From Candidatus Omnitrophota bacterium (GTDB lineage: Bacteria; Omnitrophota; Gorgyraeia; Zapsychrales; Fredricksoniimonadaceae), in NCBI GenBank assembly GCA_002753465.1, contig PEAF01000001.1, positions 5,455 through 69,454 on the forward strand: a stretch of DNA of 64,000 bases, written 5' to 3'. Positions 24,376-46,088 of this stretch are shown here, one piece after another (the stretch's first letter is position 1; each line of letters starts with the position of its first letter). Both the position numbers and the translations under genes were made by a program. The notes under the pieces were generated by a model. It was not told where the DNA came from. It saw only the letters and a list, made by a program, of their open reading frames with translations, and did not search any database.

Positions 24376-24432
24376 ACTATTATGGTGTTGTTTATGAGGT
24401 TTGACAGAATATATGGATGGAAGGGCTTAATT

Positions 24433-26682
24433 ATGAGAATTCGATTTAATTTACAGCAAAAATTATTTCTGTCGATTTTAGTCAGTGTTGTTTTTACAGC
24501 CATTGCTATGGGTATGTTTTCAAGCAAGCTGGTTGCACTTCTTGTTGTTTTTGTTGGCCTATCGGTGTCGTTATGGATCGCACATGAGACGCTGAAGCCT
24601 CTGGCATTAATCACCCGTGTTTCCAGGGATATTCTGTCGGGAAGGCTTAATGCACGCATTGATATTAAATCCAACGATGAATTTGCCGATCTGGGGGTAT
24701 TGTTCAATGAAATGACCGAGCAACTGGATCAGTCGCAGTCCGTACTCAAAAAAGAACGTGATGCACTGAGTACAGTCAACCAGAATATCGAGGCGTTGAT
24801 TGAAGGGGCCATGGCGGATGTTCATGCACGGCGCGAGAACCCTAACTTGTGCAAGTGTTGGGAAGTTAAGAAATGCGATAAGAAAGAATGTCCTTCCTAT
24901 CACGCTAGTAATTTGCGCTGCTGGTCAGTATCCGGAACGTTTTGCGGCGGGGTTGCACAGGGGGAATTTGCCAAGAAATATGGAAATTGCGAGAAATGCG
25001 ACGTCTATAAGCATGCGGTTAAAGACCCGGTTTTTGCTATTTCCGAGAAGTTCAATAGTCTCATGGACCTTTTGGACGCACGGGCTAATGAATTAAGGGT
25101 AGCGGCAAAAAAGATGGAGCACGCCTATAACGTCAAAGGTCAATTCCTGGCGAATATGAGCCATGAGATTCGTACGCCCATGAATGTGGTGCTGGGGTAT
25201 GCTTCTTTGCTGGCCAAGACGCCGTTGAGTGAAAAACAGCTGAGACATGTCAAATTGATCACCTCCGGCGGAGAATTATTGCTGGGAGTTATTAATGATA
25301 TCCTGGATGTTACAAAATTCGAGTCTGGGAAAGTGATGCTTGAGGTTATTGAGTTCAAACTCGATTATTTATGCCGCGATGTTTTTTATATGATCCAGTC
25401 GCGTTTAATTAACACAGATATAAATACATTTATAAAAATTGCGCCGGATGTCCCTCTCAGGCTAAAAGGTGACCCCACACGGTTAAGGCAAGTATTGATG
25501 AACCTTCTGGGTAATGCCGTTAAATTCACTAAAAAAGGCGAGATAGGGATCAGCATCTTTAAAGATGATCATTCTGTTGAACAGGGTTTTGTTGCGCTAA
25601 GAATTGAGATCTCTGATACAGGGATCGGGATCCCGCCGGGTAAAAGGGAGGAAATTTTTGAGCCATTCAGTCAGGCAGATATATCAACAACGCGCCAGTA
25701 CGGCGGGACTGGTTTAGGCTTGACGATATGCAAAGCGATCGTTCATGCGATGGGCGGGGATATTCACGTTGAATCGGAGGAGGGGAAGGGAAGTAAGTTT
25801 ATTTTTACAACAACTTTTAACGTTATGGAAGATTCGTTTATCAGTGAGATTTACACGGCAGAATTAGAGCAGCTTAAAGGAAAGCGGGTTGTGATCATTG
25901 ATGACCGTCAGCAGAATTGTGACATTCTGGCTCAATATTGTCAGGATGCCGGCTTGGTCGTTTCCGGTATCTTCTATGACTCTGATGGAGCTTATAATGG
26001 CGTGAGCAATCTTGTTAAGGCTGGAGATGTTCCCGATATTATTTTGTCTGACATCATGATGCCGGGTGTGAGCGGGCATGATCTTGCCAAGCGTTTTAGA
26101 GCTGATCAGGCTATCAAGGGAATTAAACTTGTTGCTATAACGTCTGACGCGTCTATTGGGAGTGCTAAAGAGGCTCATGATGCCGGATTCAACGGTTATT
26201 TGACCAAACCGGTTATTCAGGATGATCTTTTGAAGGTTATTGCCGTCGTTTTATTGAATACGCGCCAGGTTGATGAGATCGTGACCCGCCATATTGTCGA
26301 GGAATTGCGGCCCAGTGAAGTGCGAATTCTCGTGGCAGAAGATAATATGGCTAATCAGGAATTGATGCGGGAATATTTGAACATGTTGAATGTAACATGT
26401 GATTTTGTCAGTAATGGGCAGGAGGCCATTGATAAGTTAAAGCAGAATAAGTATAACCTTTGCTTTATGGATGTGCAGATGCCGGTTATGGACGGGCTTA
26501 CTGCGACGAGGATCATCCGTGAACAGATCTCTAAAGATTTTCCGGTGATCGCACTTTCAGCGGCTGTTTTGACAGAAGATAGAAAAAGAGGCGAGGCGGC
26601 GGGGATGAACGATTACGTCAACAAGCCGGTTGATTTCCAAACGCTTAAAGAAATGATCATTAAATGGAAAAAAGAGGTTTGA
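24433..26682 (+). CDS. Hybrid sensor histidine kinase with HAMP, Cys-rich (two-CW-like) module, HisKA, HATPase_c and two receiver domains
   Basis: H-box SHEIRTPMN. N/G boxes LMNLLGNAVKFT, DTGIGI and GGTGLGLTIC. REC1 ..IILSDIMMPGVSGHDL.. and REC2 ..CFMDVQMPVMDGLT... An alternative start is at 24382. Confidence 0.9.
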   Translation: MRIRFNLQQKLFLSILVSVVFTAIAMGMFSSKLVALLVVFVGLSVSLWIAHETLKPLALITRVSRDILSGRLNARIDIKSNDEFADLGVLFNEMTEQLDQSQSVLKKERDALSTVNQNIEALIEGAMADVHARRENPNLCKCWEVKKCDKKECPSYHASNLRCWSVSGTFCGGVAQGEFAKKYGNCEKCDVYKHAVKDPVFAISEKFNSLMDLLDARANELRVAAKKMEHAYNVKGQFLANMSHEIRTPMNVVLGYASLLAKTPLSEKQLRHVKLITSGGELLLGVINDILDVTKFESGKVMLEVIEFKLDYLCRDVFYMIQSRLINTDINTFIKIAPDVPLRLKGDPTRLRQVLMNLLGNAVKFTKKGEIGISIFKDDHSVEQGFVALRIEISDTGIGIPPGKREEIFEPFSQADISTTRQYGGTGLGLTICKAIVHAMGGDIHVESEEGKGSKFIFTTTFNVMEDSFISEIYTAELEQLKGKRVVIIDDRQQNCDILAQYCQDAGLVVSGIFYDSDGAYNGVSNLVKAGDVPDIILSDIMMPGVSGHDLAKRFRADQAIKGIKLVAITSDASIGSAKEAHDAGFNGYLTKPVIQDDLLKVIAVVLLNTRQVDEIVTRHIVEELRPSEVRILVAEDNMANQELMREYLNMLNVTCDFVSNGQEAIDKLKQNKYNLCFMDVQMPVMDGLTATRIIREQISKDFPVIALSAAVLTEDRKRGEAAGMNDYVNKPVDFQTLKEMIIKWKKEV

Positions 26683-27107: not shown

Positions 27108-27350
27108 ATGTCCGAACAACCACAGCTCCCTGATCCGGATTATCTTTTAAAACTTCTTCAAACACGCATGCCTTTTGGAAAATACAAGGACTGGCTGCTC
27201 ATCGACCTGCCGGAAACGTATATTTGCTGGTTCAGCCGTAAAGGATTTCCGGAGGGTTCTTTGGGCATGATGCTTAAAAGTATTTATGAGATCAAGCTTA
27301 ATGGATTAGAAGGCCTTCTGGAGCCTATTCGAAAAACAATGAAGCAATAA
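27108..27350 (+). CDS. DUF3820-family small protein
   Basis: 80 aa. MPFGKYKDWLLIDLPETYICWFSRKGFPEGSLG matches my recollection of the DUF3820 pattern. Confidence 0.7.
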   Translation: MSEQPQLPDPDYLLKLLQTRMPFGKYKDWLLIDLPETYICWFSRKGFPEGSLGMMLKSIYEIKLNGLEGLLEPIRKTMKQ

Positions 27351-27422: not shown

Positions 27423-29315
27423 ATGTTGAAAAAGTTATGTTTGAATTTATCCATTAGTTCTTCCGTTTTTCTATTCCTCCTGGGTTTCTTTTCTTCGATG
27501 GCTCTTGCTGCTAACTCGACGACAGATAGTTATTCTGCAATTGAATTGCGGCCGATCGTGATCTCTGCAGTGCGAAGCGCTGTTTATGGCGGCCGCCTGG
27601 CAGAGAATGTTGTTATTTATTCCAAGAGCCGGATCAAGGCCATGCCTGCGCGCGATCTTGGGGAGGTCTTAGGTTATATGCCGGGTGTGGATATGAGTGT
27701 TGGCGGTGGGTTTGGCCAGGCCACATCGCTATCGATCCACGGTTCGAATTCCCGCGATGTCCTTGTCATGGTCGATGATATCCCGTTTAATACCCAGCTT
27801 TCCGGTCAGGCCAGCCCAACGCGTATTCCCATCGATAACATTGAACGTGTCGAGGTCATTAAAGGGGCCTCTTCCAGTGCCTGGGGATCCAGTATGGGGG
27901 GCATTATTAATGTGATCACCAAAGATACGGGCGATAGCGTTATACCAACAGGGAACGTGACCAATTCTTTCGGGGCTTTTGCCACGCGCAAGCATAGTAT
28001 GGATATGGCAGGAAAGGCGGGGGACGTCGGGTACTATTTTATGGACAGTTTTATGGATAGTGACGGAACGCGTTTTCAGTCACCCGTCCGCGAGCAGAAA
28101 TCTTTCGCCAAGATGTCTGTGCCTTTAACCGATATCGCCAAGGTGACCGGTTCTTTTGGTTATAGTGGCGCCAGGGTTCGTCAACGCGTATTCTCGACCA
28201 ACAGGATCAATGAGTCGCCTTATATCGCCCGGTATGGCAAATTGAAGCTCGATCTTGACCAGCCGGATGGGAATGTCAATTTGGCTTATAAATACAACGG
28301 TCAGGAAATGTCGACGGATACGTATAATGCGCTCACGAACAGCCGTGTTTCTACATCAGCCAATCGCAATGAGTATCAAGGTCTCGGTATTAATGGCCAT
28401 ACACGTGTCCGTGAAGATGATACTTTTGTGATGGGCGCTGATCTTGACTGGCAGACGATCAAATCGAGCAATTATTTAAAAACTGCCAAGAGTGTTAAAA
28501 CGCAGGCGCCGTACGCTAACTATACATTGAAGCTTGGCTCCTGGGACTTGATCCCGGGTTTGCGTTTTGATAACAATGAAACTTTTGGTAATCAGCTCAG
28601 CCCCAGTGTTGGGGGTATTTATCATTTTTCACCCGAGAATGATACTCAGTGGCGCTTGAAGGCTTCAAGGGCATTTACGGCGCCTCCTTTGATGTGGATC
28701 TATAACGATGATCCCACGTTGTGGGTTGCCCCGAATCTGGATCTTAAGGCGGAAAGGGCGTTTGTTTATGAAACAGGTGCGACCGCTGATCTCGGGCGCT
28801 GGCGTATGGATGTTAATTTTTACCGCAGTGATGTAACGGATGGCCTTTCGACAGTTTTTGTGAGTGGGTTAAGCGCTTATCAGAAGCAGAATATCGGCAA
28901 ACTCCGGCGCGAAGGCGTCGAGGCGCAGGTTGACTATAGGGTCTCCAGTGAACTTAAGGCTTATGTTTCCGGGGGGTATAGTCACCCTGTGAACCGTGCT
29001 ACGCGAGATGTCGTGCGTGGCAATGGCGTTGCCCTGCAAAGTTTTGGTACTGGCATCAGTTATATGGCGCCTCTGGGCGTTGGCGTTGATCTTTACGGAC
29101 ATTATGACCGTTGGGATTCGCCGGCTTTAGAAGCTAATGACCGCAAACCCATGTTCGATCTCAAATTTAATAGAGCGTGGAAGTCTGTGTACAAGAAGCT
29201 GGATCTGAATGTATTTCTTAATATTTATAATCTGACCAATAGCAAATATTGGACCGCTCCTTCCTTGCCATTACCTGAACGCTACCTTGAGGGTGGCGCA
29301 ACCGTTTCTTTCTGA
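27423..29315 (+). CDS. TonB-dependent outer-membrane receptor
   Basis: Signal peptide, plug domain (..GQATSLSIHGSNSRDVLVMVDDIPFN...IERVEVIKGASSSAWG..), a beta-barrel region and a C-terminal aromatic residue (...GGATVSF*). Confidence 0.9.
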   Translation: MLKKLCLNLSISSSVFLFLLGFFSSMALAANSTTDSYSAIELRPIVISAVRSAVYGGRLAENVVIYSKSRIKAMPARDLGEVLGYMPGVDMSVGGGFGQATSLSIHGSNSRDVLVMVDDIPFNTQLSGQASPTRIPIDNIERVEVIKGASSSAWGSSMGGIINVITKDTGDSVIPTGNVTNSFGAFATRKHSMDMAGKAGDVGYYFMDSFMDSDGTRFQSPVREQKSFAKMSVPLTDIAKVTGSFGYSGARVRQRVFSTNRINESPYIARYGKLKLDLDQPDGNVNLAYKYNGQEMSTDTYNALTNSRVSTSANRNEYQGLGINGHTRVREDDTFVMGADLDWQTIKSSNYLKTAKSVKTQAPYANYTLKLGSWDLIPGLRFDNNETFGNQLSPSVGGIYHFSPENDTQWRLKASRAFTAPPLMWIYNDDPTLWVAPNLDLKAERAFVYETGATADLGRWRMDVNFYRSDVTDGLSTVFVSGLSAYQKQNIGKLRREGVEAQVDYRVSSELKAYVSGGYSHPVNRATRDVVRGNGVALQSFGTGISYMAPLGVGVDLYGHYDRWDSPALEANDRKPMFDLKFNRAWKSVYKKLDLNVFLNIYNLTNSKYWTAPSLPLPERYLEGGATVSF

Positions 29316-29407
29316 CGCCCAGATTCTCCAGAAGACCCTAAAAGGTCAGTCGAAAGCCCCCTTCTACTATTTACAGATCTCTTTTATAGAATATAGTTAA
29401 TGAGTTT
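29296..29407 (+). repeat. Imperfect direct repeat, copy A (pairs with 37019-37125)
   Basis: Covers the last codons of the receptor gene plus the spacer. In the core 29321-29380, 45 of 60 positions are identical to 37040-37099 by hand alignment. The block AGTTAATGAGTT follows in both copies. Confidence 0.7.
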
Positions 29408-29475
29408 AGTTGGAACATTTTTCGTATGTGCAGGATATTTCTATTGAATGAAAACTGTCAGGACAAAGTAATCCG

Positions 29476-31089
29476 ATGGGCTTTTCTGTTATCCGTTTTT
29501 TAAATTGTTTGATAGGCGCGGGCATCATGCTGATGTGCGCAGTGCCAACATCTTCTTTTTCGGCGCAGGACGTGCCATCTTACGGCGGGACTCTTGTATG
29601 GGGAACGATCAATCCGCCGACCATCATCAATCCTGTTTTGACATATCAGGGAGTATCTTCCTCACTGATGTCCCTTATTTTTAATGCGTTGGTCCGTGTT
29701 AATGCGCAAGGAGAGATTATTCCAGATTTGGCAGAATCCTGGGATGTGTCAGAGGATGGATTGATCTATGTATTCCATTTGAAGAGAGGTGTGCACTTTC
29801 ATGATGGCGTTGAGTTGACGGCTGAAGATGTTAAGTTCACGTATGAAGCCATTGAAGATCCCCGGAATGAGTCTCAGAGAAAAGACAGGACCTCAAATGC
29901 TCTTGTGGGGCAATGGCAGGTTATTGATCAATACACTGTAAAATTTTCATTGAAGGCGGCTAATAAGTTTGTTTTGTATAAATTAGCCTTCGTGATCGCT
30001 CCTATGCATCTTTTGACAGGACAAAAAATGTCGGAAGCAGCTTTTAATTGGGCGCCTGTTGGCTCCGGGCCTTTTCGTTTTAAGGCATGGGACCATAAAA
30101 CACAGGAGATCGTGCTTGAAGCTAATCCGTACTATTTCGAAGGCAGGCCGTTCCTGGACCGGATCGTGGTTAAAGTTTATCCGGATAATACCAGTCTTTG
30201 GGCGGCATTAATGCGCCAGGAGGTGGATCTGGTCAAATTCCTGAATCGGGAAGATTATGAGGTGCTGCGCAAAGATAAGTTATTTAAAACTTATGAGATC
30301 TCGTCAGGAATATGTTCGGCCATTGTTTTTGATCTTCATGATCCTCTCCTTGCCGATATCAGGGTAAGGAAGGCCATCGCCATGGGGATCAATGTTGATC
30401 GAATGCTTAATGACATACGTTTAGGGGGAGTTCCTGGGACCGGGATATTTGAATCCGGTTCCTCCGGTTTTAATCCTGATATCAAACCGTTTGCCTATGA
30501 CCCGCAGGAGGCCCGGCGCTTGCTGGAAGCAGTTGGTTGGAAAGATCTGAATGGTGACGGTATTCTTGAAAAAGAAGGCAAGGCGTTGGAGATAAAAATG
30601 CTTGTTGAAGGCCGTAGCGGATATTATCAGGTCATGGCCATGGTTATCCGCCAGCAATTATCTGAGATAGGGGTAAAACTGGTGGTCGATCTATATCAGG
30701 ATGAGAAAGCATTCACCCAGGCGTATTTATCAGCACACAAGCCACAGGCATGGTTAAGGTCTTTTGTTTCATTTATCCGTGATCCGGGGATAGCTCTCGA
30801 GCAATGGTACCCTTCAGGCGATCTGTTGCAAAAGTTGTGGAATTACAAGAATCCCGAGCTGGATGCGCTGATCGTTGAGGCAAAAACGAGTTCCGATAAG
30901 GTGTTACAAAGCAAGGTCTATCAAAAAATACATAAGGTTATTTATGATGATCAACCGGCGTGTTTTCTATTCTCATTTGTTACGCGTCACGCCGTTGCCC
31001 GAAAGTTCTCCAATACGGACGGGTTCTTTTTTCCATTGATGCCTGTCTATTTGATTAAGGATTGGTATTTATCCCCTGTTTCGCATTAG
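29476..31089 (+). CDS. ABC-type substrate-binding protein, family 5 (peptide/nickel/opine type), with no cognate permease genes nearby
   Basis: 537 aa with a signal peptide. GGTLVWG...INP.., PDLAESWDVSEDGLIYVFHLKRGVHFHDG and ...PYYFEGRPFLDRIVVKV are typical of DppA/OppA/NikA-like binding proteins. Confidence 0.9.
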   Translation: MGFSVIRFLNCLIGAGIMLMCAVPTSSFSAQDVPSYGGTLVWGTINPPTIINPVLTYQGVSSSLMSLIFNALVRVNAQGEIIPDLAESWDVSEDGLIYVFHLKRGVHFHDGVELTAEDVKFTYEAIEDPRNESQRKDRTSNALVGQWQVIDQYTVKFSLKAANKFVLYKLAFVIAPMHLLTGQKMSEAAFNWAPVGSGPFRFKAWDHKTQEIVLEANPYYFEGRPFLDRIVVKVYPDNTSLWAALMRQEVDLVKFLNREDYEVLRKDKLFKTYEISSGICSAIVFDLHDPLLADIRVRKAIAMGINVDRMLNDIRLGGVPGTGIFESGSSGFNPDIKPFAYDPQEARRLLEAVGWKDLNGDGILEKEGKALEIKMLVEGRSGYYQVMAMVIRQQLSEIGVKLVVDLYQDEKAFTQAYLSAHKPQAWLRSFVSFIRDPGIALEQWYPSGDLLQKLWNYKNPELDALIVEAKTSSDKVLQSKVYQKIHKVIYDDQPACFLFSFVTRHAVARKFSNTDGFFFPLMPVYLIKDWYLSPVSH

Positions 31090-31254
31090 TACTAAAGCCA
31101 TTCTTAAGGTTGTACAGAAATGAAGCTTTAAATATGAAAGGGGGTGAGGAAGAGTGGTGATCGTAAAGCAGGGTTCAGCGGATGTACGCAGGCTTTCAGC
31201 GCTTAGCTGTTGTTGGCCGCCTATGACAGAGACTATGAATTTAGTGGTTGAATA

Positions 31255-31329
31255 ATGTTTCATGCTTTTGAAAATATCTGTTGCCGGAAAGGGGTTGGAC
31301 TTACGGCAGCAGATATTACTCGGGAATAA
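31255..31329 (+). CDS. Speculative 24-aa ORF immediately upstream of the rSAM/SPASM gene (candidate precursor peptide)
   Basis: ATG at 31255 to TAA at 31327-31329 encodes MFHAFENICCRKGVGLTAADITRE. It ends 14 nt before the maturase ATG. There is no convincing Shine-Dalgarno sequence. Confidence 0.2.
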   Translation: MFHAFENICCRKGVGLTAADITRE

Positions 31330-31343
31330 ATCAAGGTCCTTCC

Positions 31344-32693
31344 ATGCAATTATCTTTCTATAACATTATTGTTGATGATCATCCCATACCCGGAGAGCAT
31401 CTTCTTTACAATACCCGCACCCAGGCGCTGGTTAAGGTCGAGGGGCAGTTGATGGGGCTTTTAAAGCGGCTTGACGATCCTAAGAATTTCTCCTTGAGGA
31501 TGCAGTATGCCAATGAGCTGGTTCATTTGCATGAGATGGGTTTTATTGTCGATAATAAGTGGGATGATGTAAGGCGGTTGGTTCATTTTCTGGGTGATCT
31601 TAAGTACAAGAAAACGACGGACACGTTCTCGGTTACAATCCTGACGACCATGGCGTGTAATTTCAAATGCACTTATTGCTTTGAGGAAAATACGCGCAAG
31701 CCTTTGTGTATGGACCGGCGTACATGTGACGCAACTCTGAAATGGATCAAAGAGAGGGTTATACGGATGAAGTATGACAGCATCTTTGTTACGTTTTATG
31801 GAGGAGAGCCTTTGTTGAATGAAGAAGCGCTTGAATATTTGGCGAATGATCTGCGGGACTGGTGCGCCGGTAATGGGTTCGCGTTCAGGTTCATGATCCA
31901 GACTAATGGATACCTGATGACGCATGAGCGTGTGCAGAAGTATTTGCCCCTGGGGCTTTCTGATGTACGGATATCGCTTGATGGGGTTGCTGAAGACCAT
32001 GACCTTAAGCGCCCGTTGCGCGGCGGTGGCGGGACATTTGACGAGATCATGAAGAATATTGTTGAAAATATTTCACATGTCAGGATAGGGCTTTCTGTCA
32101 GTTATGACAAGAGCGGGGTGGCGCACATTGCCAGGCTTTTGGATCATCTTGAGAAGATCGGGATATTGCATCAATTGGGCCGAATTATCTGTTCGCCTGT
32201 TCGCGCATCGTTGGGTCAGTCTGTGCATCCAGAAAAGATATGTGGCTCGGCCTGCCTGATCAATTACAATGACGAGGAATTATTGCATTCGGTGATCGAG
32301 ATCAACCGCTTGATGAGTGTTAAAGGTATTTCAGTTCAGAAGGGTTTGCCGATCTCAGCATGCCCGTTGCTTCGTGAGCACGGAGCATTTTCTATTGATC
32401 CTCAGGGGCGTTTGTTCGGATGTAATTCCATGCTGGGCCACCCAGAGTTTTCGCTTGGCGACATCTTTCATAATACGTTCAATGATAAACGGCGAAAATT
32501 CCTGAATATGGATGTTGGACTGAATTGCCCCGTTCATTGCCGTTATTTACCGGTTTGTAATGGCGGGTGCCGGCTTATCTCATTTATCGAGCACGGACGA
32601 TTTGAACGCCCTGATTGCAAGGTACGGTATTTGGATAAGATGGCACCTGATCTTGTAAAGAAAGAATATGATGCTTTATGCCAAAGTTCCTGA
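31344..32693 (+). CDS. Radical SAM/SPASM-domain peptide-maturase-like enzyme
   Basis: An N-terminal domain of about 100 aa (possible peptide-recognition element). Radical SAM motif CNFKCTYCFE (CX3CX2C) and GGEPLL. A C-terminal Cys-rich SPASM-like region (..CPLL...GRLFGCNS...CPVHCRYLPVCNGGCR). The start was taken at ATG 31344. Confidence 0.85.
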   Translation: MQLSFYNIIVDDHPIPGEHLLYNTRTQALVKVEGQLMGLLKRLDDPKNFSLRMQYANELVHLHEMGFIVDNKWDDVRRLVHFLGDLKYKKTTDTFSVTILTTMACNFKCTYCFEENTRKPLCMDRRTCDATLKWIKERVIRMKYDSIFVTFYGGEPLLNEEALEYLANDLRDWCAGNGFAFRFMIQTNGYLMTHERVQKYLPLGLSDVRISLDGVAEDHDLKRPLRGGGGTFDEIMKNIVENISHVRIGLSVSYDKSGVAHIARLLDHLEKIGILHQLGRIICSPVRASLGQSVHPEKICGSACLINYNDEELLHSVIEINRLMSVKGISVQKGLPISACPLLREHGAFSIDPQGRLFGCNSMLGHPEFSLGDIFHNTFNDKRRKFLNMDVGLNCPVHCRYLPVCNGGCRLISFIEHGRFERPDCKVRYLDKMAPDLVKKEYDALCQSS

Positions 32694-32760
32694 TCTCATG
32701 CTGATATCCAGCATTCTAGAAATGCATGGCGGTAGGGGTACGCCTATGGTATAAAAATTT

Positions 32761-34509
32761 ATGTCATTGTTATCCCTTGTTAAGCCTCATCGTCGGGGCA
32801 TCTTTTTCATCCTGTTTTCTATCTTCCTGAGTAACGTCCTTGCCTTGTTTTTGCCCTGGGGCATCAAGATCATTGTTGACGGTGTCCTGGTTCGCAGCGG
32901 CGATGCCCTTCTTTTAAGAAAAGTCCTATGTGTATTGCTGGCAGTCCTTGTCGTCCGTACGTTGCTGAGCTTCTTGCAGAAATACATCAGCAGTATGGTT
33001 GGGGAAAAGATCGTGGCGGACCTCAGGGGCCGTCTTTATGCGCATGTCCATGGACTTGCGCTGGTCCGTATCCGGCAAATATCTCCGTCGCAGATCCTCA
33101 CGCGCATTACCTCAGATGTGGATAGTGTCCGGCGTTTTGTATTCGGGGATGCGTTGGATTTCATTTATGCCGTGTTTGCTGTCGGGTTGATCCTGGTCGT
33201 TCTAGGGTGCATTAACGGCCGTATGATGATGTGGACGCTATTGACGCTGCCGTTGTTTGTTGTCATTTATTTTGGAGGGATCCCCAGGTTAAAAAGGTGC
33301 TACGGCCGCTGGCGTGATGTGCATGGCCGGTTGACCTCAAGGGTCAATGAAGTGCTGGGGGGCATGATGACGGTCCGGGCGTTCGGTGGTGAGGTGTATG
33401 AGCGTAAGATGTTCGAGGCCGGGCAAAAGGATGTTGTGCAGGCGGCAGGCCAGGCGCATGCGCTTAACACGGCGTTATGGACAGGGGCAGAGTTCTTCAC
33501 ATCTATGGGCGTGCTGGGCGTCCTGTGGGTCGGCAGTGCGGATGTGATGGCCGGGCGCATGACACCCGGTGCGTTGGTGGCTTTTTATTCATACCTGGGG
33601 ATGCTTTTTGCGCCGCTGATGCGGATGGTCGTGATCAACAGTTCTTATCAAGAGGCTAACGCTGCCTTTGAGCGTATTGCGGATGTCTTGAATATCGACG
33701 ATAAGCTGAAGCTATCGGCGGCGCCTGTGGCCTTGGGCGATCTAAAGGGCGAGGTTGTTTTTGAGGATGTTTCTTTCCGTTATCTTACGCAGCAGCGTGT
33801 CCTTGAAAAGGTTTCGTTCAAGGTTATGCCCGGTGAGACGGTGGCTGTGGTCGGGCCGAGCGGGGTCGGCAAAAGTACGCTGGTAGGCCTTTTACTGCGT
33901 TTGTTCGATGTTGAGGAAGGCCGTATCCTTATTGACGGGCATGATCTGCGGGAACTGGATCTTGATGCATACCGCCGGCGGGTTTCGGTTGTGCTGCAGG
34001 ATGATTTTCTGTTCCAGGATACCGTGGCCGCCAATATCGGGTATGCGCTTGAAGGCCTATCGTTCGATAAGATTGTGGCCGCCGCCAGGGTAGCTCAGGC
34101 TCATGATTTCATTATGGCGCTTTCTGACGGGTACGATACCAAAGTGGGTGAGCGCGGAGTGCTTCTTTCCTGCGGACAACGCCAACGTATCGCCATGGCA
34201 CGGGCCTTGGTGAGGGATCCACGGGTCCTTGTTTTAGATGAGGCGACATCGGCCGTTGATGCCATGACTGAGAATGCCATCCAGAAAGCGGTGAAGGATT
34301 TTGGGGCTCCAAGAACGGTTTTTGTTGTGGCGCACCGTTTCTCGACGATCATGGAGGCGGACAGGATCATTGTCATGCAGGAAGGCAGGCTGGTCGATGT
34401 CGGCGGACATACCGAACTTTTGGAAAGATCACCCTTTTACAGGGAATTGTACCTGGAGCAGTTCAAAGGTTCCGGTGAGTGCATGGGATCGGAGGGGGTG
34501 ATCCTGTGA
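32761..34509 (+). CDS. ABC exporter, fused permease/ATPase (MsbA/type I exporter-like), no peptidase domain
   Basis: 582 aa with six N-terminal TM helices. Walker A GPSGVGKST, signature LSCGQRQR and Walker B LVLDEATSAVD. Confidence 0.9.
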   Translation: MSLLSLVKPHRRGIFFILFSIFLSNVLALFLPWGIKIIVDGVLVRSGDALLLRKVLCVLLAVLVVRTLLSFLQKYISSMVGEKIVADLRGRLYAHVHGLALVRIRQISPSQILTRITSDVDSVRRFVFGDALDFIYAVFAVGLILVVLGCINGRMMMWTLLTLPLFVVIYFGGIPRLKRCYGRWRDVHGRLTSRVNEVLGGMMTVRAFGGEVYERKMFEAGQKDVVQAAGQAHALNTALWTGAEFFTSMGVLGVLWVGSADVMAGRMTPGALVAFYSYLGMLFAPLMRMVVINSSYQEANAAFERIADVLNIDDKLKLSAAPVALGDLKGEVVFEDVSFRYLTQQRVLEKVSFKVMPGETVAVVGPSGVGKSTLVGLLLRLFDVEEGRILIDGHDLRELDLDAYRRRVSVVLQDDFLFQDTVAANIGYALEGLSFDKIVAAARVAQAHDFIMALSDGYDTKVGERGVLLSCGQRQRIAMARALVRDPRVLVLDEATSAVDAMTENAIQKAVKDFGAPRTVFVVAHRFSTIMEADRIIVMQEGRLVDVGGHTELLERSPFYRELYLEQFKGSGECMGSEGVIL

Positions 34510-36284
34510 TGATGTTTTTTGCGCAGCGCTTAAAAGGATGGGTCGCCTTTTTATGGCCTCGACGGATTTGGCAGCAGATCTTCTGGGTGCTCCTTTTACT
34601 AGCGGTTGTGCCGCTGGTTGTCCTGGGTACGTTGCTGATCAATACCAGTCAGCAGGCGGTCAGGACATCTGTCCTGCGTGATCATAAAGAGATCGCTTAT
34701 CGTGCGGCCGGTCAGGTGAATGAATTTGTTCGAAAACCTCAGGATCTGCTGATGACGGCGGCATCCATCATGGGGGTAAGCCATGCCGATGCCTGGCGAC
34801 AGGAAACGGCTATCGTCGAGCTTTCCCTGCGTTTTCCAATGTTGCGCCGTGTGGCGTCCATTGATATCAACGGGCAGGAGGTCGCCGTATCAAAGCTGGG
34901 CAGTGACAAGATCGATCGGTCCAAAGAAGAATCTTTCTTAAGTGCGCGTGAGGGTAGGCCGTTCATCTCTTCTGTTAATATCCATGGGACGGATACGCCG
35001 GTTGTTACTATTTCAGTGCCCATTACGCAATGGGGTAAGGTCAATGGCGTTCTTATGGCTGAGGTTGATCTTAGGGGTATGTGGGATATCGTAGATGGCA
35101 TCCATGTAGGAACGACAGGGTATGCGTGCGTGGTCGATCGTTCTGGAGCGCTCATTTCGCATCCGAACAAGAAAATGATCCTGAGCCACGAACCTCTTTT
35201 TAATACAAAGATAGTGGGGGAGGTGTTATCCGGCAAGGGGGGCAGCCTGGAGGATGTGGATGCTCAGGGCGGAGGATGGATCGCCTCCTACGCGCCGGTA
35301 GAAGGTGCTGGCTGGGGACTTTTGATCTTTCAGTCAGCGGCGGAAGCTTATGCTTTTTCGAAGATCATGAAGGTTCAGGCATGGTCATTTATTTTGATCG
35401 TTATGGTGGCCGCCTTCATCATTAGTATGGCATTGGCAAGGTTCATGAGCCGTCCGCTTAATATGTTGCTTGATGGCGCCCGGCGGATATCGCTGCGGGA
35501 TTATGATCATCCCTTGCCTGTGGCGCATCAGGACGAGATCGGGCAGATCATGGCTTCTTTTAATGATATGACGGCTAAACTCAAGCAGGTCCGCCAGGCA
35601 GAGAAGCTGTCGCTCATAGGTAAAGCCGTGACGAGCATTGTGCATGAGCTCAAGAATTCGCTGGTACTGGTCGATACGTACATTCAGCTCCTGGGTGAGC
35701 GTTATAAGGATAAACAGTTCATCCAGGAATTCACCCGTGTTGTGCCCCAGGAGTTGAACGCCTGGAAAGGGATGCTGCAGAACATGGGGGAGTATGCGCG
35801 CGTGCCGTATTTTGCGCTTGATCCGGTCGATGTCAATGTATTGCTTAAGGATGTGGCTCTCTTGGCGGATCACCGGGTCAAACAGCATGGGGCTGACTTT
35901 GTTGTCGAGGAGGCATTCGGTATCCCGCCGGTGCGCGGTAATGCCGACAAGCTCAGGCAGGTGTTGATGAATTTACTTTCTAATGCCCTGGATTCCATGT
36001 CTTATGCCGGGACCGTGTGGCTGACGTCCGCTCTCAGGGCGCATCCATCCCACGCAGGCAGGTTGTTTGTGGTAATATCGGTTGAGAATACGGGAGAGGT
36101 CATTTCTCCCGAGAGGCTGGAGCGTATCTTTGAGCCGTTTTTTACGACCAAGGACGGCGGGTTGGGTTTGGGCTTGGCGATCTGCCGTGAGATTGTCGAA
36201 CGTCATGATGGTTTTATTGATGTTGTCAGCGGCCCTGTGAAGACGGCGTTCCGCGTTCATTTACCGTTGGATAATGGGGGTTGA
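34509..36284 (+). CDS. Sensor histidine kinase with extracytoplasmic Cache-like domain and HAMP
   Basis: The start ATG overlaps the ABC stop (GTGATGATG). TM, then a periplasmic region of about 250 aa (..GYACVVDRSGALISHPNKK..), a second TM and HAMP. H-box SIVHELKNSL. LMNLLSNALDS and GGLGLGLAICREIV. Confidence 0.85.
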   Translation: MMFFAQRLKGWVAFLWPRRIWQQIFWVLLLLAVVPLVVLGTLLINTSQQAVRTSVLRDHKEIAYRAAGQVNEFVRKPQDLLMTAASIMGVSHADAWRQETAIVELSLRFPMLRRVASIDINGQEVAVSKLGSDKIDRSKEESFLSAREGRPFISSVNIHGTDTPVVTISVPITQWGKVNGVLMAEVDLRGMWDIVDGIHVGTTGYACVVDRSGALISHPNKKMILSHEPLFNTKIVGEVLSGKGGSLEDVDAQGGGWIASYAPVEGAGWGLLIFQSAAEAYAFSKIMKVQAWSFILIVMVAAFIISMALARFMSRPLNMLLDGARRISLRDYDHPLPVAHQDEIGQIMASFNDMTAKLKQVRQAEKLSLIGKAVTSIVHELKNSLVLVDTYIQLLGERYKDKQFIQEFTRVVPQELNAWKGMLQNMGEYARVPYFALDPVDVNVLLKDVALLADHRVKQHGADFVVEEAFGIPPVRGNADKLRQVLMNLLSNALDSMSYAGTVWLTSALRAHPSHAGRLFVVISVENTGEVISPERLERIFEPFFTTKDGGLGLGLAICREIVERHDGFIDVVSGPVKTAFRVHLPLDNGG

Positions 36285-36286
36285 AG

Positions 36287-36997
36287 ATGTTCTACGAGAA
36301 GATCGTTGCCATAGATGATGATGTACGTCAGCTTGAAAGTTTGAAGCTTGTTTTGGGCAGGCATTATGAGCTCATTTGCTTCAGGAGTGGCGAAGAAGCT
36401 CTTTTGTACCTGAAGCGTCCTAATGGCATCAGGCTTGTTCTTCTGGATATTTGCATGAAGGGTATGGATGGGCTTGCCGTATTAAATGAGATCCGTCAGA
36501 TGGGTTTGGATATCAAGGTCGTTATTATGACCGGGCATGGTTCCAAGGAAATGGCTGTGCAGGCGTTGCGCTATGGTGCGAATGATTTTATCGACAAGCC
36601 TTTTGATATCCGGGTTCTGCAAGACAAGGTTCGTCAATTCCTGAAAAAGAACAATAGTCATGAGCATGAGCAGGGCCTTATCCCCGGACGGATGAAGTCT
36701 TTCATGGAAAAAAATCTTGCGGGTGTGACGCTTAAAGATATGGCCGAGGACCTTTGTTTGAGCGAGAAATACGTTGGCCGTGTTTTCAGGAAAAACAATG
36801 CGTCCAGCTTCAGGGATTGCAAGATCAACATGAAGATTGAGAAAGCCAAGGACCTTTTGCAGAGCTCGGCTTATCCAGTTTACAAGATTGCAAGCATGTT
36901 GGGTTATCAGAACCCCGAAACCTTCATGCGGATATTCAAACGCAAAACCACATTATCGCCGCTTCAATACCGCAACGCCACCAAACCTGCCAAGTGA
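36287..36997 (+). CDS. Response regulator with AraC-type HTH output domain
   Basis: REC (..LVLLDICMKGMDGLAVL..) followed by a C-terminal HTH_AraC domain (..LKDMAEDLCLSEKYVGRVFRK...IASMLGYQNPETFMRIFKRKTTLSPLQYR). Confidence 0.85.
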   Translation: MFYEKIVAIDDDVRQLESLKLVLGRHYELICFRSGEEALLYLKRPNGIRLVLLDICMKGMDGLAVLNEIRQMGLDIKVVIMTGHGSKEMAVQALRYGANDFIDKPFDIRVLQDKVRQFLKKNNSHEHEQGLIPGRMKSFMEKNLAGVTLKDMAEDLCLSEKYVGRVFRKNNASSFRDCKINMKIEKAKDLLQSSAYPVYKIASMLGYQNPETFMRIFKRKTTLSPLQYRNATKPAK

Positions 36998-37018
36998 TCC
37001 TGTAACAGATTCACTCTC

Positions 37019-37125
37019 TGGCGCCTCCTTTTCTCTTCGACATTCTCCAGAATGTACGAAAAAGTCAGTTGAAAGTCCCCTTATCCTATCGACAGATAAA
37101 TAAGAGTTGATAAGTTAATGAGTTC
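37019..37125 (+). repeat. Imperfect direct repeat, copy B (pairs with 29296-29407)
   Basis: Begins 22 nt after the response-regulator stop. It contains ATTCTCCAGAA, GTCAGTTGAAAGTCCCCTT, CTAT..ACAGAT and AGTTAATGAGTT in the same order and spacing as copy A. Confidence 0.7.
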
Positions 37126-37185
37126 TACTTTATCGCATGATGTATTTTAAGTTGATCTAAGTCAGAAGAGGCGGGGTAAGGGCGG

Positions 37186-37557
37186 ATGAAAAGTATACAT
37201 ATTCTTATTGTTGAAGATGATGATGACTGTCGATTATTCACTGAAATGATTTTAAAAGAACTGGGCTGTACCTTTGAGATTGCGCTAAACGGGCATGAAT
37301 CTGTGGACAAAGTTGGGAAGGGAAAGTTTGATGCGGTCCTGATGGATGTGCTGATGCCGGTCATGAAGGGCTATGATGCGATAGCTGCGATTAGACAGAT
37401 ACATATAAATTTACCGATCATCGTGGTGACAGCCTACCGTATCGACTTGGTCGAGCAGAAATGTTTTGAACTTGGTGTGAATGACTATTTGATAAAGCCT
37501 TTTCAGAAAGAGGAGTTGGCTGAGAAACTAAAAAAATGGACGGTTCTTAGGCAATAG
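37186..37557 (+). CDS. Single-domain response regulator (REC only)
   Basis: 123 aa. ILIVEDDDDCR...AVLMDVLMPVMKGYDA...VVTAY...DYLIKP. Confidence 0.85.
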   Translation: MKSIHILIVEDDDDCRLFTEMILKELGCTFEIALNGHESVDKVGKGKFDAVLMDVLMPVMKGYDAIAAIRQIHINLPIIVVTAYRIDLVEQKCFELGVNDYLIKPFQKEELAEKLKKWTVLRQ

Positions 37558-37588: not shown

Positions 37589-37798
37589 ATGGCATTATCC
37601 GTAATAAATGACCTGATCAAGGATCCTGAGATCAGGAAAGAGATCGAACACTACAAGTGGATCGAAAGTGAAAAGATGGGCGCTGATATCGGTTTCGAAC
37701 GGGCGGCTGAAGAATGGTTCGTTCAATATTCCAAGGCATGGCTCAAGGTCCTCGCTGCGGCAGCCAAAAAGCCGGCACGCAAGGCGAAGAATGTTTGA
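37589..37798 (+). CDS. Small protein, first of three tandem paralogs, with a Lys/Ala-rich tail
   Basis: 69 aa with GGAG upstream. Core DPEIRKEIEHYKWIESEKMGADIGFERAAEEWFVQYSKAW. The tail is AAAAKKPARKAKNV. Confidence 0.6.
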   Translation: MALSVINDLIKDPEIRKEIEHYKWIESEKMGADIGFERAAEEWFVQYSKAWLKVLAAAAKKPARKAKNV

Positions 37799-37833: not shown

Positions 37834-37992
37834 ATGTTGTCCTTAATAAAGGCAGGATTGATCAATGATCCCGAAATATGCGTAGAGATCGAGTGTTACA
37901 GACAGACCGAAAGTAAGAAGCTGGGGGTGGATATTGGTTTTGAAAAGGCGGCTGAAGAATGGGTCCGCTCAATATTCAAAGAAAGAGCTTAA
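37834..37992 (+). CDS. Small protein, second tandem paralog (1-nt indel and 45-nt deletion relative to copy 1; possibly decaying)
   Basis: AAGGAG lies 5 nt upstream. Encodes MLSLIKAGLINDPEICVEIECYRQTESKKLGVDIGFEKAAEEWVRSIFKERA*. It is not in the ORF track because it is under 60 aa. Confidence 0.45.
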   Translation: MLSLIKAGLINDPEICVEIECYRQTESKKLGVDIGFEKAAEEWVRSIFKERA

Positions 37993-43581: not shown

Positions 43582-44172
43582 ATGACAAGTAATTCGTTTA
43601 GATCGACCATCCGTTATGATGAAGAAATCGCCCGTTGGGCCTTGAGACTACTGGCGCACAAGCCGGTAAGGACGTATTTTTCATCTTCTTCCAGGGCCAA
43701 AGAGATCAAGATGTTTCTCTTGTTCCATGTTTTTATTATGCTCGTTAATCTTTCTGTGGCCGGCTATATTCTGAAAGCTGGCCTTTCATATAAGCCATAT
43801 GACGGCATCTGGATATTCTTGTCTTTGGCAGCGGCTTATCTGATCGAGATACCGTATAAGAACCTTTTGGCAGATAATGTTACGGCATTTGTACAGTCAG
43901 AATTTTCGGAAGAAGATCTGAAGAAGATAACTATTGTTCAAATGAGTGTTCGTTTGGAAAAGAAATATCAGGCGCCAGAACTGATAGATACAGTTTCGGG
44001 GTGGATGTCTATATTCCGGTATGGTTTGGTATTTCTATATGCATTTCTGCTGTTGATCTTTATCCCTTTTACGCAGGCATCACTGATCATATTGTCTGTA
44101 GCCTGGGCTGCCCGGGCTCTCTCCAGGTCTTCTATCCTTGCAGACCGCATAGTACCTGTTAAAGTCGTTTAG
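43582..44172 (+). CDS. Membrane protein, unknown function (about 4 TM)
   Basis: 196 aa. Its stop overlaps by 4 nt the stop of the convergent radical SAM gene. Confidence 0.5.
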   Translation: MTSNSFRSTIRYDEEIARWALRLLAHKPVRTYFSSSSRAKEIKMFLLFHVFIMLVNLSVAGYILKAGLSYKPYDGIWIFLSLAAAYLIEIPYKNLLADNVTAFVQSEFSEEDLKKITIVQMSVRLEKKYQAPELIDTVSGWMSIFRYGLVFLYAFLLLIFIPFTQASLIILSVAWAARALSRSSILADRIVPVKVV

Positions 44173-46088
44173 ATTAATCCAAAGTAGAAATAACTGAGCA
44201 TTAGCATCAGGAAAATTAATCCTGTAGTGGATGTACTTAGGAAAAAGAAGAAGTTTACGACAATAAAACAATTTCTAAAGAATGGATTATTCAGTTTCGG
44301 GTGATCATACGTCAGTGTTAGAAAATCGATCCTGTTCCAATTCAGGTTAATAAAGCGGTCTTGCTTTTCAATATCCCCGTATAAACGCGAATTAGGGATT
44401 GGTGTGAACAGTGTCAAGGTGGACATCAGGGGCCTGATCTTGGCTGAAGACCATACCAGTTTCCAGAATGTCATAAAGTCATCTGAATCAAATCCGTAAA
44501 GGAACTGCCCTTTGATCTGTATGCCCATTTTCTTAAGTTTTTGGGTCAGGCTGATATAGTCATGCGCCATGGACAGTTTCGGGATCCTGGCAACTTCTTT
44601 TGATCCGGCGAAGATCTCATAGCCGATCAACAACTGTACGCACCCACTGTCTTTGCACAGTTGCAGGGCTTCGGGGTCTTTGGCAATATCAATGCTGCTG
44701 TTGGCATTCCAATGGATCTTCAGAGGGATCAGGCGTTTAAAAAGCTCTTTGGCGTAGGCAGGATCCGAATAAATGTTGTCATCAAGAAAGTTCAGGGTTT
44801 TCTCATAGGTACTGGCTTTTTTGACCAGTTCAATGACAAGATCCAGCGGATGATTGTAATAGCCAATACGCAGATGCCCTGCCCCGCAGAAATTACAATT
44901 GAATTTGCAACCGCGCGTTGTTTCAATTGAACTGGTGATCAATTCCGGTGGTTGGGTTAACAGGAATCGAGTTACTTTATTGTATGCTTCAGGGGTAGGT
45001 TTTCCAGCATAGGTTCTTTTTAAATTGCCTGATTCATAGTCACGGATCAGATCTTCCCAAACACCTTCTACCGGTCCGACAACAACGGTATCACAAAATT
45101 CCAAAGCCTCTTCAGGGAAGGCGGTAACATGAGAACCTCCCATGATGACCTTACTGCCTCTTTTCCGAAATCCTTTGGCGATCCTGTAAGCCTCCATACA
45201 ATTATTGGAAAAGCAGGTAATCCCTACTATGCCGGCAGGTGTGTAATGTTCTTCTTTCCAGGGAATGCGGGTGAATTCTTTAAATTCATAACCGTCAGGG
45301 GTAAGGCCGCGCAGGATGTTAAAGACGTAGGGACGTTTTTCACGAAAAGCGAATGATGAAAGGCTGTAGATCAGGCTGCCTGAGACAGGGTTTATCAGGA
45401 TGATCGTTCTTTCTTTAGGCCAGGAGACGGTTTTAGGAAGGTTCAATTGTTGGATGATCGTCGTAGCCGCGCTTAAGAATATCCAGAAACTTGAGTATTT
45501 CAGAAGAAAAATACCCATGGCATTAAGGGCAACCCATTCTTCAGGAATGAAATAATAGAAAGAATAGACGCTGTAAAAGATCAACGAAGTTATGATAACA
45601 ACGCCCCAGGTAGTGCCTGTGGTCATTTTCTGACGTGCCGCGGTTTCTGAGGGATATTTATGCTCCAGGACTATTTTGACCCACAAGATCGCTACCAATG
45701 GCTGTACAAGCATTTGGACGGTATGGAACGGGGTTGGTGTATTTAATAATAAATAAACAGCAAAATGCAACAGATAAGGTAGTAAGGTCAAACAAACGGC
45801 TGTCTTGAAGAAAGCTTTTTTATTAATGTTGAACGATTTGACCAGGGGCGGAAACTCCTGGCCAGTGGCATGCTCGATCAGGTAGCCATAGGTGAAAGCG
45901 GTTAAAGTTGCTTTCAGCAGGAACATGCCAATGAATTCTGGCCAGGCGAGGATATTGGCCAATGCTTGAGGTAAATGGAAAGCAATGACCGGGCTCCAGG
46001 ATTCAAAGTACGTTAGAACGGCAACGGGCAGAATGAGTTTATTGAGTAAATTGAAGGACTCGCGTAAACGGTCAAATATCTGCCTCAT
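44169..46088 (-). CDS. Membrane-embedded B12-binding-type radical SAM protein, paralog 2
   Basis: About 220 aa of N-terminal TM helices. A Rossmann-like segment (TIILINP...GSKVIMGGSHVTAFPEEALEFCDTVVVGP). Radical SAM motif IETTRGCKFNCNFCGAGHL and a C-terminal TM helix. The ATG at 46088 forms an ATGA overlap with paralog 1. A GTG start at 46094 is also possible. Confidence 0.85.
   Translation of the reverse strand: MRQIFDRLRESFNLLNKLILPVAVLTYFESWSPVIAFHLPQALANILAWPEFIGMFLLKATLTAFTYGYLIEHATGQEFPPLVKSFNINKKAFFKTAVCLTLLPYLLHFAVYLLLNTPTPFHTVQMLVQPLVAILWVKIVLEHKYPSETAARQKMTTGTTWGVVIITSLIFYSVYSFYYFIPEEWVALNAMGIFLLKYSSFWIFLSAATTIIQQLNLPKTVSWPKERTIILINPVSGSLIYSLSSFAFREKRPYVFNILRGLTPDGYEFKEFTRIPWKEEHYTPAGIVGITCFSNNCMEAYRIAKGFRKRGSKVIMGGSHVTAFPEEALEFCDTVVVGPVEGVWEDLIRDYESGNLKRTYAGKPTPEAYNKVTRFLLTQPPELITSSIETTRGCKFNCNFCGAGHLRIGYYNHPLDLVIELVKKASTYEKTLNFLDDNIYSDPAYAKELFKRLIPLKIHWNANSSIDIAKDPEALQLCKDSGCVQLLIGYEIFAGSKEVARIPKLSMAHDYISLTQKLKKMGIQIKGQFLYGFDSDDFMTFWKLVWSSAKIRPLMSTLTLFTPIPNSRLYGDIEKQDRFINLNWNRIDFLTLTYDHPKLNNPFFRNCFIVVNFFFFLSTSTTGLIFLMLMLSYFYFGLI

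Follow-up and report, generated by a model that had tools for sequence, protein, structure and literature searches.

What does the radical SAM/SPASM maturase in the middle of an Omnitrophota gene module modify, and why is it accompanied by an outer-membrane receptor, a solute-binding protein without a permease and a two-component system? The module occupies positions 27423-37557 of a 64,000-nt stretch of DNA from a Candidatus Omnitrophota bacterium (hereafter the window, i.e. the whole stretch that was analysed; all coordinates are positions in it and all module genes lie on the + strand). A preliminary description of this DNA had read the module as a peptide natural-product locus, i.e. one for a peptide that is made by ribosomes and then modified post-translationally (RiPP), with a metallophore or a signal as its product and with no open reading frame (ORF) of 60 aa or more that qualified as the precursor. 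The latter holds, but the module does contain a conserved precursor ORF of 33 aa, at 31154-31255. The previously missing precursor is thereby supplied, its conserved core being CCWPPGT, and the module is very probably a RiPP locus with that ORF as its precursor gene. Across phyla, the peptide and its maturase have been passed on in company with the receptor, the binding protein, the kinase and the regulator. Judged by sequence, the locus is a divergent sister branch of the uncharacterised geopeptide system, lying below both of that system's curated cut-offs, and of the two products considered, signal and metallophore, we favour the signal.

Gene calls were taken from the ORF listing and domains from Pfam and NCBIfam scans. 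These place seven co-directional + strand genes plus the one missed precursor gene in the module; the seven consecutive genes named in the preliminary description are all present, with the domains it had given them.

27423-29315, +, TonB-dependent receptor (Plug 1.8e-21, TonB_dep_Rec barrel 1e-28)
29476-31089, +, family-5 solute-binding protein (SBP_bac_5 3.2e-80)
31137-31149, +, Shine-Dalgarno region AAAGGGGGTGAGG ahead of the precursor ORF, read directly in the window sequence
31154-31255, +, precursor peptide gene, 33 aa, GTG start (orthologous ORFs in homologous loci)
31273-31317, +, hairpin (14-bp stem) that separates the precursor gene from the maturase gene (RNAfold)
31344-32693, +, peptide maturase of 449 aa with RiPP recognition element (RRE), radical SAM and SPASM domains (Radical_SAM 1.3e-17)
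32761-34509, +, fused ATP-binding cassette (ABC) exporter, transmembrane plus nucleotide-binding domain (ABC_membrane 2.9e-39, ABC_tran 1.5e-31)
34509-36284 (longest ORF from 34479), +, dCache-HAMP sensor histidine kinase (dCache_1 4.7e-25, HAMP, HATPase_c)
36281-36997, +, response regulator with AraC-type output (Response_reg 4.5e-24, HTH_18 3.7e-15)
37186-37557, +, stand-alone receiver (REC) protein, CheY-like (Response_reg 1.8e-25)

The precursor peptide and its maturase

All ORFs of at least 20 aa were listed and the region 5' of the maturase gene was compared across loci. The comparison of homologous clusters, which the preliminary description had proposed, yields one conserved small ORF, and this ORF lies within the 31090-31343 gap that had been flagged there for checking. 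Its product, MVIVKQGSADVRRLSALSCCWPPMTETMNLVVE, consists of a leader (approximately residues 1-17, with the consensus M-E/V-I-I-x-x-G-x-x-D) and a core that carries an invariant CC(W/F)P motif. Orthologues occur in loci L001, L002, L006, L081, L082, L084, L086, L087, L089-L100 and L102, for example MEIIKQGVQDVRRLSVLCCCWPPGTENMALTVE in L081 and MDIIQEGKTDIKEMAALGCCWPPGTQNMQLTEPEED in L087. Over the 20 distinct orthologous sequences, residues G7, D10, C19, C20 and P22 are the same throughout but are encoded by different synonymous codons (all four GGN codons occur at G7), variation is highest at the third codon position (59 vs 40 and 28), and a ribosome-binding site of the AAAGGAGGTG type precedes the start codon by 5-8 nt in 20/20 cases. 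Because of these Shine-Dalgarno sites, the invariant residues with synonymous codons and the third-position variation, we regard the ORF as a translated gene under selection.

A DNA pattern derived from the peptide matched 14 stretches when run on metagenomes, and 13/14 are genuine; wherever the genuine matches have enough flanking sequence, the ORF lies between the gene of the family-5 solute-binding protein (SBP5) and, mostly, the radical SAM gene. The match in L101, which has no Shine-Dalgarno site, was discarded as a chance hit. A phmmer search of the precursor against 1.84 billion representative proteins returned two genuine called ORFs, next to one repeat-protein false positive, from which it follows that gene callers almost never annotate this precursor, and neither Pfam nor NCBIfam gives a significant match to the precursor peptides. 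Other small ORFs in the gap, such as MFHAFENICCRKGVGLTAADITRE at 31255-31329, are not conserved in other loci.

The precursor gene is followed by a conserved secondary structure: in the window the 110 nt after its stop codon fold at -27.5 kcal/mol (RNAfold), and a strong GC-rich hairpin occurs at the same place in 19/19 folded orthologous loci, i.e. all those with enough downstream sequence. These hairpins are unrelated in sequence, and several are followed by a U-run; the element is probably a terminator, an attenuator or an mRNA-stabilising structure. An Rfam scan of the whole window gave zero matches, and in a promoter/terminator consensus scan the site counts did not exceed the shuffled expectation. 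A promoter-like sequence, TTTACA-16-TATAGT (10/12 matches), lies at 29370-29397 (+) ahead of the binding-protein gene; such sites are not more frequent than by chance, and this one is compatible with a separate transcript of binding protein and precursor that ends at the hairpin.

The constant position of the hairpin 3' of the ORF, together with the conserved and stalling-prone Trp-Pro-Pro, could also be taken to mean that the 33 codons encode a regulatory leader or arrest peptide, in which stalling at W-P-P acts on an attenuator hairpin, and no substrate of the maturase. We consider this barely credible. Conservation in the N-terminal half of the peptide equals that in the WPP region, and this half can be aligned with the leaders of geopeptides; moreover, the element that is invariant across branches is Cys-Cys rather than Pro-Pro (CCRIG in L009, CCGFD in L008). 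The maturase has an RRE and needs a peptide substrate for which there is no other candidate, and the up to nine tandem copies of the ORF in geopeptide loci (L105) are typical of precursors.

The maturase itself starts at ATG 31344 (the longest ORF begins at TTG 31281). In an alignment of 28 homologues the CX3CX2C radical SAM motif (C105/C109/C112) is invariant, and so are the SPASM cysteines C340, C360, C395, C399, C405, C409 and C425 and the glycine G355, which form the pattern C340-x14-G355-x4-C360 ... C395-x3-C399-x5-C405-x3-C409 ... C425; this region aligns to the SPASM region of CteB. The best NCBIfam match is the geopeptide maturase family TIGR04280 (238.3 bits, cut-off 400), which is covered almost end to end (model positions 1-424 of 428), followed by CefB (165 bits, cut-off 600), TIGR04463 (152, cut-off 525), Clo7bot (139, cut-off 600) and PapB (125, cut-off 340), so that the top matches are all maturases of Cys-rich peptides. 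By profile, the best solved relative is CteB (3.9e-31), with which the identity is 16-18%.

The AlphaFold2 model of the maturase (predicted local distance difference test, pLDDT, 92; predicted template modelling score, pTM, 0.87) has CteB as its best Foldseek match as well (5wgg/5why, 451-469 alignment columns including gaps, i.e. essentially the whole protein), with TigE, anSME and ChlB next. The preliminary description had singled out the approximately 100 residues ahead of the radical SAM motif as the usual site of a peptide-recognition element, and in the model they indeed form a three-strand, three-helix fold (strands 7-10, 18-23 and 29-33; helices 34-41, 46-54 and 56-64; pLDDT >90). As modelled, this domain is RRE-like, typical of RiPP recognition elements, and it is predicted to bind the leader. 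The alternative of an anaerobic sulfatase maturase was rejected: TIGR03942 reaches 65.7 bits against a cut-off of 349.45, the RRE-like domain is present, and the annotated flanks contain no sulfatase.

Co-inheritance of the module and its relation to geopeptide loci

Homologous loci were obtained from the gene tables of homologues at 46-65% identity, and every locus fetched was compared with the proteins of the window by tblastn. A scan of a genome collection with the maturase alignment used generic radical SAM motifs and contributed at least about 8 true relatives among the 80 loci listed; further relatives were recovered by protein-to-contig look-ups and by the peptide-derived DNA pattern. 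The order receptor, SBP5, peptide, radical SAM enzyme, (ABC exporter), dCache kinase, REC-AraC regulator, (REC protein) recurs in these loci. It is seen in L001, L002, L006, L081, L082, L084, L086, L087, L090, L095, L098 and L100, and extends to the more distant loci L005 (Auribacterota), L003 and L004 (both Planctomycetota) and L008, so that it is kept in about 15 loci of Omnitrophota, Auribacterota and Planctomycetota, while the flanking genes differ at each locus. The preliminary description had named three outcomes that would speak against its RiPP reading, namely a maturase that groups with non-peptide SPASM enzymes, no small ORF conserved in homologous clusters, and genes that are not co-conserved elsewhere. 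None of the three is what we find: the maturase groups with the peptide maturases and not with the anaerobic sulfatase maturases, a small ORF is conserved, and the gene order recurs.

The individual components conform to this picture. The receptor (630 aa, no N-terminal signalling extension) shares 41-71% identity with its positional counterparts in homologous loci; its PDB relatives match the plug domain only, with BtuB as the best (67 bits). The binding protein carries a signal peptide and has as its best solved relative the oligopeptide binder AppA of B. subtilis (1xoc, 7e-59, full length), followed by binders of nickel and peptides; with AppA as the nearest, a peptide ligand would fit. Its gene lies directly 5' of the precursor ORF in every orthologous locus with sequence that reaches upstream. 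As had been claimed, the protein lacks a partner permease or ATPase: there is no DppBCDF/Opp-type permease or ATPase gene among the annotated window ORFs, where the only importers are CbiMQO and ZnuABC-type systems some 20 kb away on the opposite strand, and no such partner occurs in any gene-table locus of the window family. The fused exporter is MsbA/HlyB-like (NCBIfam) and has, according to Pfam, ABC_membrane and ABC_tran domains only, in line with the earlier statement that it has no peptidase domain; it is present in most orthologous loci and absent in L084, L086 and L095.

The kinase gene, which encodes a periplasmic dCache sensor, follows the radical SAM or ABC gene in every locus with sequence extending that far downstream. 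Its longest ORF begins at GTG 34479, but the start is most likely ATG 34509, which overlaps with the stop codon of the ABC gene (TGATG) and is preceded, seven bases upstream, by GGAGG. The gene of the AraC-type regulator overlaps the kinase stop by 4 nt and is kept after the kinase in L002, L006, L081, L082, L084, L086 and L087; L084 and L087 likewise have REC-only genes behind the regulator.

Some loci deviate in detail. Between receptor and binding protein there is an extra gene in L081 (7304-8059, 251 aa, no Pfam match) and in L082 (6934-7935, a 333-aa HisKA/HATPase kinase-like protein). In the clade of L089, L094 and L102 the peptide MEIIKQGTNDIINATIPGCCWPPGTEVQENPN (L094 at 635 of the reverse strand; L102:5044-5142) is followed by a terminator and then by housekeeping genes that are, judged by eye, RluD-, Lgt-, LspA- and IleS-like. 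In L094 and L102 an SBP5 gene precedes the peptide (in L089 the sequence on that side is too short to tell), and no receptor, radical SAM or kinase gene lies beside the peptide; the maturase of this clade may reside elsewhere in the genome or may have been lost.

The geopeptide system (maturase TIGR04280, precursor TIGR04229 in NCBIfam), with which the best family match of the maturase connects the module, has been catalogued from genomes and is experimentally uncharacterised. Its maturase family comprises 2,071 proteins at E <= 1e-60, many of which are named geopeptide radical SAM maturase by NCBI. We compared six such loci, namely L009 (Nitrospiraceae) and L018 (Desulfobacteraceae), the maturases of which pass TIGR04280 with 531 and 566 bits, and L103-L106. 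In 5/6 (L009, L018, L103, L104 and L105) a receptor lies directly before one or more CC-core ORFs and the maturase, the gene of an orphan PF04392 binding protein adjoins or overlaps that of a histidine kinase, and there is no permease; L106 does not share these features. The neighbourhood of receptor, orphan binding protein and sensor kinase, which is a feature derived here from the six loci and not a published criterion, is present in the window as it is in L009, L018 and L103-L105, and the window, too, encodes immediately ahead of the maturase a short precursor that has a conserved leader and adjacent Cys-Cys in its core.

Geopeptide precursors (e.g. MEREKGEERKEEIIVLDEGIDVEDMAGPKGICCRGPFFAFR; general form EIIVLDEGID...CCxGP) align with the window family both in the leader (EII..G.D) and in the CC core. 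In L105, nine identical tandem copies of MKEERIIIIDEGIDEVNPDGWQACCWGPLFAFRG with a 166-nt period lie between receptor and maturase (6225-7741). The receptors of geopeptide loci are 28-30% identical to the window receptor over the full length (187-227 bits) and the window maturase is 27% identical to true TIGR04280 members, which argues that receptor and maturase diverged in parallel. The curated models place the window locus outside the named family, the maturase falling below the TIGR04280 cut-off and the precursor giving no match to TIGR04229 (threshold 30 bits; its L087 orthologue reaches 13.3 bits, E 0.058). The latter test is weakly informative, because the peptides beside true TIGR04280 members also stay below this narrow, 22-position model.

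These comparisons also bear on whether the module is one system at all. One could suppose two unrelated neighbouring units, i.e. an uptake and sensing unit for peptides or nickel that happens to lie beside a RiPP pair without any functional link, and L094 and L102, with binding protein and peptide but no maturase, do show that the parts can separate. The combination, however, is found beyond Omnitrophota in Auribacterota, Nitrospirota and Desulfobacterota as well; its flanks differ, and binding protein, kinase and regulator have been replaced by non-homologous ones. Receptor and maturase have diverged in parallel, and within one co-directional block the precursor gene is enclosed by those for binding protein and maturase. 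A chance neighbourhood is therefore very improbable.

Upstream of the module lie genes for chorismate synthase, a short-chain dehydrogenase/reductase, a patatin-like protein, a cupin, a UPF0047 protein, a hybrid kinase and an S4 protein, and downstream those for a CoA-binding protein, MutY, a HAD hydrolase and QueH; both flanks being housekeeping genes, we treat the module as a discrete block. Those close homologues of the chorismate synthase that bear names all come from Candidatus Omnitrophota. The S4 gene was rejected as a member, having no homologue in any other locus, and so was the hybrid kinase, which has only generic kinase and receiver-domain matches there. This hybrid histidine kinase (24382-26682, +; HAMP, HisKA, HATPase and two REC domains) carries a Cys-rich insert between HAMP and HisKA, CKCWEVKKCDKKECPSYHASNLRCWSVSGTFCGG...CEKCDVYKH, that looks like a metal- or cluster-binding sensor module. 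An 80-aa protein encoded directly 5' of the receptor gene (27108-27350, +) matches Pfam QSregVF_b, a putative quorum-sensing-regulated virulence factor (2.8e-30); it probably lies outside the module, because no other fetched locus has a homologue.

Behind the REC-only gene follow two tandem paralogous small ORFs (37589-37798 and 37834-37992, +; 69 and 52 aa, 64% identical) with the common motif KWIESEK.G.DIGFE.AAEEW and a weak DUF4032 match (E 0.0047). Homologues are found about 2 kb upstream of the receptor in L081 (2969-3181) and L084/L085 (3917-4141, minus strand), and on account of this proximity the ORFs may be loosely linked to the module. Elsewhere in the window there is a run of metal-transport genes at 53719-62745 (-), encoding Nramp, MgtE_N/CBS, CbiO/CbiQ/CbiM (Co/Ni) and ZnuA/ABC-3/ATPase proteins, which includes a gene for a pyridine-nucleotide disulphide oxidoreductase. 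Other radical SAM proteins are also encoded in the window (44169-47998, 10468-11910 and 51160-52407, all -). Three of these are B12-binding, of which two, at about 640 aa, are adjacent paralogues and the third has 480 aa; there is one more radical SAM protein besides, and all are unrelated to the SPASM maturase.

Possible roles: a signal or a metal carrier

A precursor, genes for processing or export, a sensor kinase and a response regulator occur in one locus here, as they do in the Agr, Com and NisRK circuits. The reading that we favour is that of a peptide signal that is produced, exported, re-imported and sensed, and in its full form we give it an even chance. The RRE would dock the leader, and the radical SAM enzyme would cross-link one or both of the adjacent Cys to nearby carbons (a thioether of the sacti- or ranthi-type, by analogy with CteB and PapB). 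Release of the peptide would fall to the ABC exporter or, in loci that lack one, to a general exporter, and some protease would remove the leader. The mature peptide, too large for porins, would re-enter the periplasm via the dedicated TonB-dependent receptor, where the orphan binding protein would capture it and present it to the dCache kinase or act alongside that kinase. The kinase would then phosphorylate the AraC-type regulator and the CheY-like receiver, and transcription of the locus and of other targets would be adjusted, while the hairpin 3' of the precursor gene would set a high ratio of precursor to enzyme transcript.

What favours a signal is the direct pairing, in true geopeptide loci, of a kinase with an orphan binding protein that is not homologous to the one in the window. 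Between the two branches the family of the binding protein, the sensor domain of the kinase and the output of the regulator have been swapped, whereas the overall logic has been kept. That the ligand would be sensed in the periplasm rather than taken up into the cytoplasm is suggested by the non-homologous binding proteins in the two branches, by the coupling to the kinase gene in geopeptide loci, and by the fact that no locus has an inner-membrane importer. For parts of this logic there are precedents: LuxP is a binding protein docked on LuxQ, a sensor kinase with a double PDC domain, and in Bacteroides SusC-type import is followed by periplasmic sensing through hybrid two-component systems with AraC outputs.

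Several observations weigh against the signal reading. The maturase chemistry is extrapolated from distant relatives (16-18% identity to CteB), the locus encodes no leader peptidase, and the exporter is lacking in L084, L086 and L095 as well as in the geopeptide loci examined, which makes the export step a putative one. Furthermore, the binding-protein gene of the window family adjoins receptor and precursor and not the kinase, the model does not explain the clade of L089, L094 and L102, which keeps the peptide without an adjacent maturase, and we found no literature on 'geopeptide' or TIGR04280, i.e. no experiment on any member of the family. Among the relatives of the binding protein (NCBIfam) are NikA (180 bits) and CntA, a staphylopine binder (143 bits), and two free thiols in the peptide could bind metal. 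Nor does the kinase exclude a metallophore, because two-component systems that sense an imported siderophore are known, such as PfeS/PfeR.

The last points lead to the alternative of a RiPP metallophore, in which a secreted Cys-Cys peptide chelates Cu, Ni, Zn or Co and the receptor re-imports it; the NikA/CntA-like protein would pass the peptide to a permease encoded elsewhere, or the metal would be freed in the periplasm, and the kinase would sense the loaded peptide and induce uptake genes. We consider this unlikely, though by no means far-fetched. The adjacent Cys of the precursor are invariant, the pair of receptor and orphan binding protein mirrors methanobactin operons (PMC3621798), and Omnitrophota are anaerobes with a high demand for Fe-S and metals, the window having many radical SAM genes and metal transporters. 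On the other hand, the nearest characterised maturases turn Cys thiols into thioethers, by which the obvious ligands for a metal would be lost, the best solved match of the binding protein binds oligopeptides and not metal, the module contains no metal-responsive regulator, be it Fur or an extracytoplasmic function (ECF) sigma/anti-sigma pair, and the receptor has no N-terminal transducer extension. In addition, geopeptide loci use a binding protein from another, unrelated family, the gene of which goes with that of a kinase and in no case with a permease.

Precursor, radical SAM enzyme, ABC exporter, kinase and regulator also form the classic layout of an antimicrobial RiPP, and relatives of the maturase make sactipeptide and ranthipeptide products. 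The peptide would then be a bacteriocin directed against competitors or hosts, with nisin-style autoinduction in which the two-component system senses the product and raises its output, the ABC protein providing both export and self-immunity, and the receptor and binding protein serving in sensing or retrieval. This is improbable, given that the core CCWPPGT is strongly conserved across distant genomes, unlike the diversifying cores of warfare peptides, that the ABC gene is often missing, that an uptake receptor for its own toxin would harm the producer, and that there is no recognisable immunity gene.

If the signal reading is extended to the geopeptide-type loci as a whole (more than 2,000 maturases, the Omnitrophota branch included), these would constitute a so far unrecognised kind of cell-cell signalling in double-membrane anaerobes, i.e. 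a radical SAM-cross-linked pheromone with a TonB gate and a periplasmic readout by an orphan binding protein coupled to a histidine kinase, for which entry into the cytoplasm would not be needed. We put this forward tentatively, as somewhat less than an even chance. The use of peptide pheromones is considered characteristic of bacteria with a single membrane, since an outer membrane is a barrier to peptides of that size. A locus that encodes its own peptide, maturase, outer-membrane gate and periplasmic reader offers a testable route for modified-peptide signals, or metal carriers, in double-membrane bacteria. With precursor and core known, it is now possible to obtain the product from two co-expressed genes. 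An unannotated Omnitrophota cluster is moreover tied to a large, uncharacterised family in which receptor, orphan binding protein and kinase accompany peptide and maturase in 5/6 of the loci compared. We found no literature on this link, or on receptor, binding protein, kinase and a radical SAM RiPP together, and the Cariaco Basin paper holds nothing specific on such clusters in Omnitrophota. Since Omnitrophota are uncultured and often host-associated, a self-made peptide that is sensed could bear on the detection of partners or of density.

Comparison with known systems

The closest relationship is that with the geopeptide system, which has in common with the window family the TIGR04280 match from end to end, a hairpin 3' of the precursor, a related receptor and an orphan binding protein with a kinase. 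The differences concern the parts. The geopeptide core is CCxGP followed by 4-5 mostly hydrophobic residues and a terminal R or RG, whereas that of the window family is CC(W/F)PPGT with an acidic tail of variable sequence behind it. The binding protein belongs to SBP_bac_5 in the window family and to PF04392 in geopeptide loci, the regulator output is AraC in the former and of sigma-54 or hybrid types in the latter, and both the dCache sensor of the kinase and the usual presence of an ABC exporter set the window family apart. The hosts, too, differ in phylum (Omnitrophota vs Thermodesulfobacteriota or Nitrospirota).

With the CteB/SCIFF- and PapB-type maturases the window enzyme shares the RRE-radical SAM-SPASM architecture and fold, and the precursor substrates of all contain Cys. 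Unlike in those systems, however, the window precursor contains only one pair of Cys, side by side, its hosts are diderm bacteria with an outer-membrane receptor and a periplasmic binding protein, and the chemistry of the product is a presumed one.

In methanobactin operons a ribosomal precursor is found together with an exporter and a TonB-dependent importer, and some of them also have an orphan periplasmic binding protein (PMC3621798). The resemblance to them that the preliminary description had pointed out stands as regards the logic, a TonB-dependent importer and a binding protein lying beside biosynthetic genes in the window by analogy, but does not extend to the components. MbnB/MbnC and an MbnA-type precursor are absent from 27423-37557, the radical SAM/SPASM protein being the only biosynthetic enzyme; export is of the ABC type as opposed to MATE; a two-component system takes the place of the FecIR-like sigma/anti-sigma pair; and the receptor, unlike that of methanobactin operons, has no N-terminal extension. 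The binding protein is nearest to AppA, and there is no MbnE-like protein among the 60 of its 94 matches to solved relatives that were listed.

At the level of signal perception, finally, the module would be comparable to LuxP-LuxQ, in which a periplasmic binding protein goes with a double-PDC/dCache kinase, and to the SusC/hybrid two-component systems, which combine TonB-dependent import of a large ligand into the periplasm with two-component sensing and an AraC-type output. It would differ from both in that its ligand would be a self-made modified peptide, received through a putative contact between binding protein and kinase.

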